NCBI GenBank assembly: GCA_039194325.1 | Contig: JBCCWC010000081.1 | Coordinates: 1 to 54,766 of the forward strand | Length of the DNA: 54,766 nt | Origin: Myxococcota bacterium | GTDB taxonomy: Bacteria > Myxococcota_A > Polyangia > Nannocystales > Nannocystaceae | Direction of reading: 5' to 3' | Part shown: positions 29,735 through 29,962 of the stretch, in pieces | Layout of the letters: every line of letters begins with the position of its first letter | How positions within the stretch are numbered: the stretch's first letter is position 1 | Notes under the pieces: model-generated | The model's input: the letters and a program-made list of their open reading frames with translations, nothing else | Told to the model about the DNA's origin: nothing | Database searches by the model: none | Made by a program: the position numbers and the translations under genes

Positions 29735-29962
29735 CCGAGGCCGGCTCGGAATGCGCGACGGCTGTCGCGCCCGGCCTCGGTCTTGAAATGATGATGCCGA
29801 GGCCGGCTCGGAGTACGCGACGGCGTTGCGCCCGGCCTCGGTCTTGAAACGATGATGCTGAGGCCGGCTCGGAGTACGCGACGGCGTTGCGCCCGGCCTC
29901 GGTCTTGAAATGATGATGCTGAGGCCGGCTTGGTGTTCGTGGCGGGCTCGGAGTGCGCGACT
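29735..29962. repeat. Tandem array (3 full and 1 degenerate copies, about 60-bp period) of the REP-like nested palindrome element
   Basis: Units tgatgc(c/t)gaggccggctcgga(a/g)t(g/a)cgcgacggc(tg/gt)t(c)gcgcccggcctcggtcttgaaa(t/c)ga. Outer palindrome CCGAGGCCGG/CCGGCCTCGG; inner GCGCGAC-N3-GTCGCGC. Immediately 3' of the MVP gene. Confidence 0.85.

Follow-up and report, generated by a model that had tools for sequence, protein, structure and literature searches.

Behind several genes of a contig from an uncultured Myxococcota lineage, one and the same G/C-rich nested palindrome recurs, partly in tandem. This raises the question whether the copies belong to a dispersed repeat family, to which class of small bacterial repeats such a family could be assigned, and how it came to lie where it does. 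We analysed the whole stretch of DNA that contains these copies, a complete contig of 54,766 nt termed the window hereafter, together with contigs of other data sets that carry the same element.

Copies in the window and at unlinked loci

The core of the repeat is a nested hairpin of 45–46 nt, HP1, of which we found seven full copies, one truncated and one degenerate copy at five loci of the window (Table 1). Chance can be excluded as the cause of this repetition: the 10-mer arm CCGAGGCCGG occurs 13 times in the window (1.21 occurrences expected; 13 is reached in 0 of 100 shuffles) and a 25-mer half-element occurs six times (0.00 expected). A profile search of the window (nhmmer --max) returned no HP1 copies beyond those listed. 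Every location that an initial annotation of this DNA had given for the repeat contains a copy, and the three to four tandem copies with a 60-bp period that it had described correspond to an array of 3.2 copies with a 61-nt period and 94% matches (29732–29930). The recurring peptide it had reported is likewise found: ...VAPGLGLAH... is encoded in three long open frames (17554–19146, 46131–47255 and 31687–32310, all on the minus strand), only the first of which is a real gene, and the shorter APGLGL is present in seven open frames. The peptide recurs because the element is open in all six frames.

The family extends well beyond the window. The exact 26-base pattern GACCGAGGCCGGGCGCRAC-N3-4-GTCGCG matches on 20 metagenome contigs from at least three projects; as these copies were picked by an exact match, their count is a lower bound and both their number and their uniformity are biased. 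Searches of protein databases with six-frame translations of the element gave a single significant match (P0121), which led to one more copy on an ENA contig (L090). Viral contigs searched for the element gave no match. The element-bearing contigs match the window across the element only, with the exception of L068, which is syntenic with 32044–32218 of the window at 83% identity. The genes adjoining the copies are unrelated to each other and include those for a secretin, a halogenase-like protein, a GNAT protein, glutamate synthase, DksA, a TPR protein, a globin, an ECF sigma factor and a cupin. The five loci (nine units) in 55 kb of the source metagenome-assembled genome are thus joined by 21 further contigs in other data sets, and the claim of a dispersed family, which occurrence at these loci alone would have spoken against, holds. 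Judged by sequence, the copies show a genuine dispersed repeat family, present at many unlinked loci in at least two related lineages.

That the repeat reflects local duplication or an assembly artefact limited to this contig is practically out of the question. The contig does come from a metagenome-assembled genome, and its first 100 bases form a perfect fold-back; however, the copies lie inside the contig between intact genes, and the 21 independent contigs of other assemblies refute this explanation. The fold-back itself is a palindrome of 50 + 50 nt with no spacer (positions 1–100), next to a 42-nt tandem array of 3.9 copies at 95–261, and could be either an assembly artefact or another repeat family.

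A looser pattern, CCGAGGCCGGGCGC-N16-30-CCGGCCTCGG, was also searched in a genome collection and was discarded: the matches listed are an unrelated palindrome of 47–50 nt from Hyphomicrobiales (CCGAGGCCGGGCGC...GCGCCCGGCCTCGG; L001–L067), conserved in Microvirga, Mesorhizobium, Methylobacterium and Methylocella, which has only the arm sequence in common with HP1, as imposed by the search pattern. Two inverted copies of this palindrome (L035, 3592–3638 and 5663–5709) each lie just upstream of an ORF for an HTH_29 + rve_3 transposase, so that the Hyphomicrobiales palindrome belongs to an insertion sequence.

The contig has a G/C content of 63–72% and carries ordinary chromosomal genes typical of myxobacteria, including those for a Ser/Thr kinase, a TRAP transporter and two-component proteins. 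Between 11734 and 29724 we noted a eukaryote-like set consisting of an ERG4/ERG24 sterol reductase, two cytochromes P450, an arginyl-tRNA-protein transferase and an 873-residue homologue of the major vault protein (MVP), the last with thousands of relatives in Myxococcota-type metagenome bins. Two further tandem repeats are present in the window. A 42-nt array of 4.7 copies with 90% matches (13751–13949) is located in the intergenic region from which a P450 gene (11734–13131, minus strand) and a gene for a HipA-like kinase (14054–14842, plus strand) diverge, and may be a set of regulatory binding sites. The 13-nt non-triplet repeat GGTGCGGTGCGGT (7.2 copies, 37373–37470) falls within roughly the first 50 codons in the longest ORF for an N6/N4 DNA methylase (36164–37510, minus strand), the Pfam domain of which begins at residue 68; as a change in repeat number would shift the frame, the methylase may be phase-variable.

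Table 1. Copies of the element in the window, with associated repeats, and extension-like motifs in relatives
Feature	Position	Strand	HP1 or copy	Extension	Remarks
Long-form copy after the ERG4/ERG24 sterol reductase gene	17560–17670	−	17612–17657	17564–17614	Degenerate arm (CCGCGG); extension ends in CTTGGGAG
Direct tandem array after the MVP-like gene (27103–29724)	29725–29965	+	29735–29780, 29797–29841, 29858–29902	Absent	Starts 10 nt past TGA; period 61 nt; rearranged, truncated unit 4 at 29919–29965
Long-form copy between the DoxX gene (stop 31090–31092) and the Uma2-family gene (ATG 31203)	31093–31202	+	31107–31151	31149–31190	HP1 14 nt past TGA; extension diverged; ...GGTGAGAGCTC leads straight into the downstream Uma2-family ATG
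Short-form copy, in the sense of the di-haem oxidoreductase (DHOR)-like gene (32028–34070, −)	31911–31967	−	31916–31961	Absent	Convergent intergenic region; Uma2 gene ends at 31868
Five perfect 13-nt units (TCTATACCGAGGC on the minus strand)	31955–32019	−			13 nt × 5.0, 100% matches; 5' junction of the element expanded in tandem, occupying the gap from TGA (32028–32030) to HP1; first unit 14 nt from the DHOR-like stop
Long-form copy, second unit after the hexapeptide-transferase gene (47256–48329, −)	47109–47202	−	47152–47196	47109–47154	
Truncated first unit after the hexapeptide-transferase gene	47207–47249	−	47207–47244		Without 3' outer arm (sense orientation); begins 12 nt past TAG (47256–47258); forms a pair with the full copy (48 nt × 2.0)
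Extension-like gene-end motifs in relatives	L088 2985–3055; L089 12560–12640	L089 −			

Anatomy and fold of the unit

In the sense of the upstream gene, HP1 reads GCCGAGGCCGG, the bulge CTCGGTAT, GCGCGAC-loop-GTCGCGC and CCGGCCTCGG, with TATCYAT as its 5' flank and TCTTGC as its 3' flank; 8–14 variable nucleotides (N-TATCYAT) separate it from the stop codon. Its fold consists of an outer stem of 10 bp and an inner stem of 7 bp, with a one-sided bulge of 8 nt between them and a loop of 3–4 nt, the inner palindrome being the one first described, with N3 or N4 as its loop. When single units were folded, the nested hairpin was the minimum-free-energy structure on both strands, as RNA and as DNA, with about −33 to −39 kcal/mol for RNA (z −3.5 to −5.2; weaker for the degenerate copy at 17612) and about −23 kcal/mol for DNA (z about −5); over both forms, z is about −4 to −6. 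Covariation analysis found the pairs of HP1 to be invariant across copies, so that covariation would speak neither for selection on the structure nor for a role as RNA rather than DNA.

At about two thirds of the loci, HP1 is followed by a 50-nt extension, TCTTGCCACGCGGCACCCGGGAGGAACGAAAACCGGGGTCTTCTTGGGAG, which ends in TTGGGAG and brings the unit to about 105 nt. The length of roughly 50 bp originally assigned to the element therefore fits the hairpin core (46 nt) but not the many units that carry the extension. The extension is always attached to HP1, never occurs alone, and similarity between copies stops at its GGGAG. Its folding is no better than that of shuffled sequences (z about 0 to −1.6), and we therefore rejected it as a structured RNA; the sense strand folds only modestly more stably than the antisense strand (−15.5 vs −12.3 kcal/mol, Wilcoxon p 0.006), with copies that are not independent of each other. 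The extension thus stands out by its conserved sequence and not by a convincing structure. Two alternative pairings, of the 5' flank with the bulge and of the 3' arm with the extension, were dropped as they showed no covariation.

The family has subfamilies: in ten copies from nine unlinked loci, the 5' arm contains CCTCGG in place of CCGAGG. This common double change is the pattern that would be expected from the copying of a variant master, not from independent mutation.

We also looked at motifs resembling the extension. As a general gene-end motif of the window, CTTGGGAG was rejected, with two matches compared to 1.8 expected. In relatives that have no HP1, either CTTGC followed by a G/C-rich hairpin and GTCTTCGTTGGGGA, or GTCTTTGC followed by a hairpin and CTTGGGAGG, stands directly after stop codons (Table 1). 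The extension module resembles these motifs, and a gene-end motif characteristic of the lineage may be its origin.

Placement behind stop codons, turnover and arrays

The initial annotation had located the element at gene 3' ends or between genes, and the placement proved to be far stricter than that. Of 26 independent loci, 23 show the element in the same sense as a preceding gene with high GC3, whose stop codon comes 8–14 nt before HP1 or, in an array, before the first unit. All five window loci obey this rule, the ERG4/ERG24 locus with a TGC at the expected stop position. The three loci that do not fit cleanly are L073, where the element is antisense between two genes, L070/L084, where the upstream frame has only 56 codons, and L075, where the distance is 35 nt. 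Copies do occur on both strands, as noted initially, but to speak of both orientations is misleading, since the orientation is locked to the upstream gene at those 23 loci. Of the window loci, two have the element on the plus and three on the minus strand, all in a region of uniformly positive GC skew; the orientation thus tracks the direction of the gene and not that of replication.

The stop codons also stand in a biased context when the 39 window genes serve as the reference. Of 24 loci, 22 have a C ahead of the stop (p about 1e-5 vs 0.49), 22 use TGA (p about 1e-3 vs 0.62) and 20 continue with a G (p about 4e-5), which makes C-TGA-G the usual context. About five of the 39 gene ends in the window bear the element. 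Native C-termini are complete in the proteins encoded upstream: DUF899 is matched over 224/224 model positions (...HDEY), the secretin over 168/169, and DUF459 to within one or two model positions. As the host proteins keep their native ends, the element sits behind intact genes and does not truncate them.

At the sterol reductase locus, Pfam ERG4_ERG24 is matched to the model end (432/432) at residue 447 of 485. A TGC, right after ...IPFLY, stands at the expected stop position, and the ORF consequently runs for 38 codons through the element to a TGA at 17554–17556. These codons either form a genuine C-terminal tail or stem from a stop codon that was corrupted in sequencing or assembly. Readthrough or selenocysteine-type recoding at UGA was considered for the family and rejected, because the length of the spacer, and hence the reading frame, varies between copies. 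An N-terminal extension is seen in L090 (9990–10115), where a gene caller prolonged a downstream chondroitinase-B-like gene through the element; its true start is likely a GTG with a lipoprotein signal peptide about 15 nt after the GGGAGG end of the element.

Orthologous sites can be occupied or empty. The MVP orthologue in L088 (85% amino-acid identity) ends in GAC-TGA-G without an element, where the window has 3.5 units, and L068 lacks the element behind the stop of its DHOR-like orthologue, where the window has one copy plus the five-fold expansion of the junction. As far as these alignments go, they show that the presence of the element differs between relatives of 83–85% identity and that orthologous sites are empty. 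Loci with more than one copy are always direct arrays, with periods of 48, 58, 61 or 100 nt. In the 100-nt array of L068, each new unit begins behind the GGGAG of the preceding one, a sequence resembling the TGAG of gene ends. In this way the family expands at single loci into tandem arrays of direct repeats. None of the 26 loci contains an inverted doublet with a short spacer; copies in opposite orientation occur only in L068, at a distance of about 430 nt from each other and each behind a gene of its own.

Could the position after the stop codon simply reflect function? On this account, the copies would be immobile, lineage-specific terminators of transcription or signals for 3'-end processing, whose similarity is preserved through gene conversion and selection. 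The strict orientation and distance relative to the upstream gene would suit such signals, as would the resemblance of the extension module to the gene-end motifs of HP1-less relatives. Nevertheless, we regard this account as rather unlikely: a near-identical sequence of 46–105 nt at more than 25 unlinked loci, next to unrelated genes, is far more than a terminator needs, presence varies between close relatives, and subfamilies defined by a double substitution are common to unlinked loci. Moreover, the element has no T-tract, only the small share of window gene ends given above bears it, and the preference for C before the TGA, which affects a codon of the host gene, would be needless for a terminator.

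Class, origin and significance

In the broad sense, the element is REP-like, as a short imperfect palindrome forming a stable stem-loop. Of the REP/BIME-like character initially proposed, the short, G/C-rich, extragenic and hairpin-forming repeat stands, whereas the inverted pairs of BIMEs and REPINs are absent. Nor is the element a MITE in the strict sense, with terminal inverted repeats and a target-site duplication: the two ends of the long form, TATCYATGCC... and ...CTTCTTGGGAG, do not match each other in inverted orientation, and neither flank repeats the bases of the other. Neither is it a canonical intrinsic terminator. HP1 is followed by GGUCUUGC, its tail reading GGTCTTGC, and not by a T/U-tract, and a terminator scan called none of the copies at 17000–33000. 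A native-looking bidirectional terminator hairpin of about −22 kcal/mol followed by TTTCGAT was seen between convergent OmpA-like and GNAT genes (25967–25998), so that the organism also employs ordinary terminators unlike the repeat. In Rfam 15, the only match of the window is a tRNA-Phe, and three element-bearing loci gave chance-level matches at E up to 10.

Some traits of the element recall the attC sites of integrons, either isolated or in integrase-less clusters after cassette ORFs: an imperfect palindrome with a one-sided unpaired segment that lies directly after the ends of ORFs and in fixed orientation to them. The sequence contradicts this reading, which we hold to be very improbable. 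The consensus has no core pair RYYYAAC...GTTRRRY, no integrase is encoded in the window, and tandem units follow one another without ORFs between them; the genes concerned are ordinary chromosomal, housekeeping-like ones on both strands instead of a co-oriented cassette array.

REPs have been defined as short G/C-rich extragenic palindromes, and REPINs as two REPs in inverted orientation with a short spacer (PMC3337134). A classical REPIN/REP population, maintained by a single-copy RAYT (IS200/HUH type) elsewhere in the genome, would account for a short G/C-rich extragenic palindrome at five loci in 55 kb, for the subfamily structure and for the tandem clusters. We consider such a population doubtful, since inverted doublets are absent from the 26 loci, the orientation is bound to gene direction, and the flanks contain neither a conserved GTAG-type box at the foot of the stem nor a CTAC. 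The initial annotation had suggested looking for a cognate RAYT/IS200-like transposase. Among the 39 ORFs of the window no transposase or integrase was detected, and no Y1/HUH transposase (RAYT) was found among these and about 18 neighbouring ORFs of other loci, about 140 kb in all, which is weak evidence given that a RAYT is a single-copy gene.

The comparison with REP/BIME elements of enterobacteria and pseudomonads therefore has two sides. Like these, the HP1 family consists of short G/C-rich imperfect palindromes that lie extragenically at gene 3' ends, in many copies and in tandem clusters, and the same roles in protecting mRNA 3' ends have been proposed; PMC12306157 describes a large share of E. 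coli REPs as lying within 15–20 nt of the stop codon and affecting translation there. Unlike REP/BIME elements, the HP1 family lacks inverted doublets, alternating orientation and a GTAG-like box, none of the ORFs searched encodes a RAYT, its orientation is locked in about 90% of the loci, and it has a nested stem, an 8-nt one-sided bulge, an optional non-palindromic extension of 50 nt and direct-repeat arrays.

Elements of the IS608/ISDra2 type combine a subterminal hairpin with the absence of terminal inverted repeats and of a target duplication, and insert 3' of a short specific sequence. Like miniatures derived from IS200/IS605 (palindrome-associated transposable elements), our element has a subterminal hairpin and appears to be inserted in one orientation 3' of a short target, here C-TGA-G. 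The GGGAG at its own 3' end is similar to this target, and in the L068 array more units come after it, which recalls the IS200/IS605 target rule. In contrast to such miniatures, its left and right hairpins are unrelated in sequence, and neither TnpA nor TnpB is encoded nearby. Two findings count against a textbook IS200/IS605 element: the spacer between the stop codon and TATCYAT, and with it the distance from target to hairpin, varies by 0–6 nt, unlike the precise junctions of that type, and the orientation is tied to the direction of genes and not of replication.

Mycobacterial interspersed repetitive units (MIRUs) contain small ORFs extending across the adjacent stop and start codons and are not strongly palindromic. 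With MIRUs and with ERIC and Correia elements, the HP1 family has in common that it is intergenic, orientation-dependent relative to the flanking genes, present in direct tandem copies and, as we suppose, co-transcribed with its neighbours. ERIC and Correia elements differ from it as 100–150-bp elements with terminal inverted repeats, and Correia elements also have a TA duplication. The effects of ERIC elements depend on their orientation (PMC2229807). Compared with ERIC, Correia and MIRU, our element has no sequence similarity and no Rfam match.

Taken together, the family is a new REP-like small bacterial repeat of an uncultured Myxococcota lineage with unusually strict placement; a Myxococcota family of REP-like repeats was not found described in the literature searched. 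It is probably a dispersed, non-autonomous REP-like element, co-transcribed as a 3' UTR and spread by sequence-preferring insertion, where we infer both the functional steps and the mobilising enzyme from features of the sequence. Copies would arise through insertion that prefers C-TGA-G gene ends, and insertions elsewhere would be removed by selection. A single-strand activity of the HUH/Y1 type as the inserting enzyme is only a guess; such an activity would explain why the hairpin is subterminal, why no duplication is seen and why the polarity towards a short target is fixed. Once inserted, the element would be co-transcribed as the 3' UTR of the gene it follows, and its very stable stem-loop would block 3'-5' exonucleases, thereby defining or stabilising the 3' end of the mRNA. 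As the stem starts within the footprint of the terminating ribosome, it may in addition affect termination and reduce how much of the upstream protein is made, by analogy with REPs of E. coli that lie at most 15 nt from the stop codon, for which PMC12306157 (citing Liang et al. 2015) reports stalled ribosomes and a down-regulation of translation.

A bolder and improbable proposal is that of a mobile gene-end module, in which the integration machinery would recognise C-TGA-G and place a ready-made 3' UTR behind intact genes, made up of the hairpin, a terminator-like tail and the Shine-Dalgarno-like end GGGAG. The spacing of 8–14 nt, the bias that reaches into the last sense codon, the intact C-termini and the re-insertion behind GGGAG are compatible with such a module and no proof of it. 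If it were true, this would be a stop-codon-targeting transposition, a mode not described for REPs, MITEs or IS200/IS605.

The sequence-preferring, REP-like family that we favour has practical consequences as well. The element leads to read-through of ORFs and to false N- and C-terminal extensions in annotations, as in the ERG4/ERG24 tail and the L090 gene start, and it is a likely breakpoint in metagenome assemblies of the lineage. REP-like repeats have been little studied outside the gamma-proteobacteria, and the family offers a natural experiment in which the same very stable stem-loop lies at a near-constant 8–14 nt behind the stops of many unrelated genes. A functional role of this placement would lend weight to the view, so far derived from E. 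coli, that REPs close to a stop codon adjust the termination of translation and the decay of the mRNA; should the placement be a matter of insertion specificity, it would indicate a transposition activity that reads the stop-codon context.
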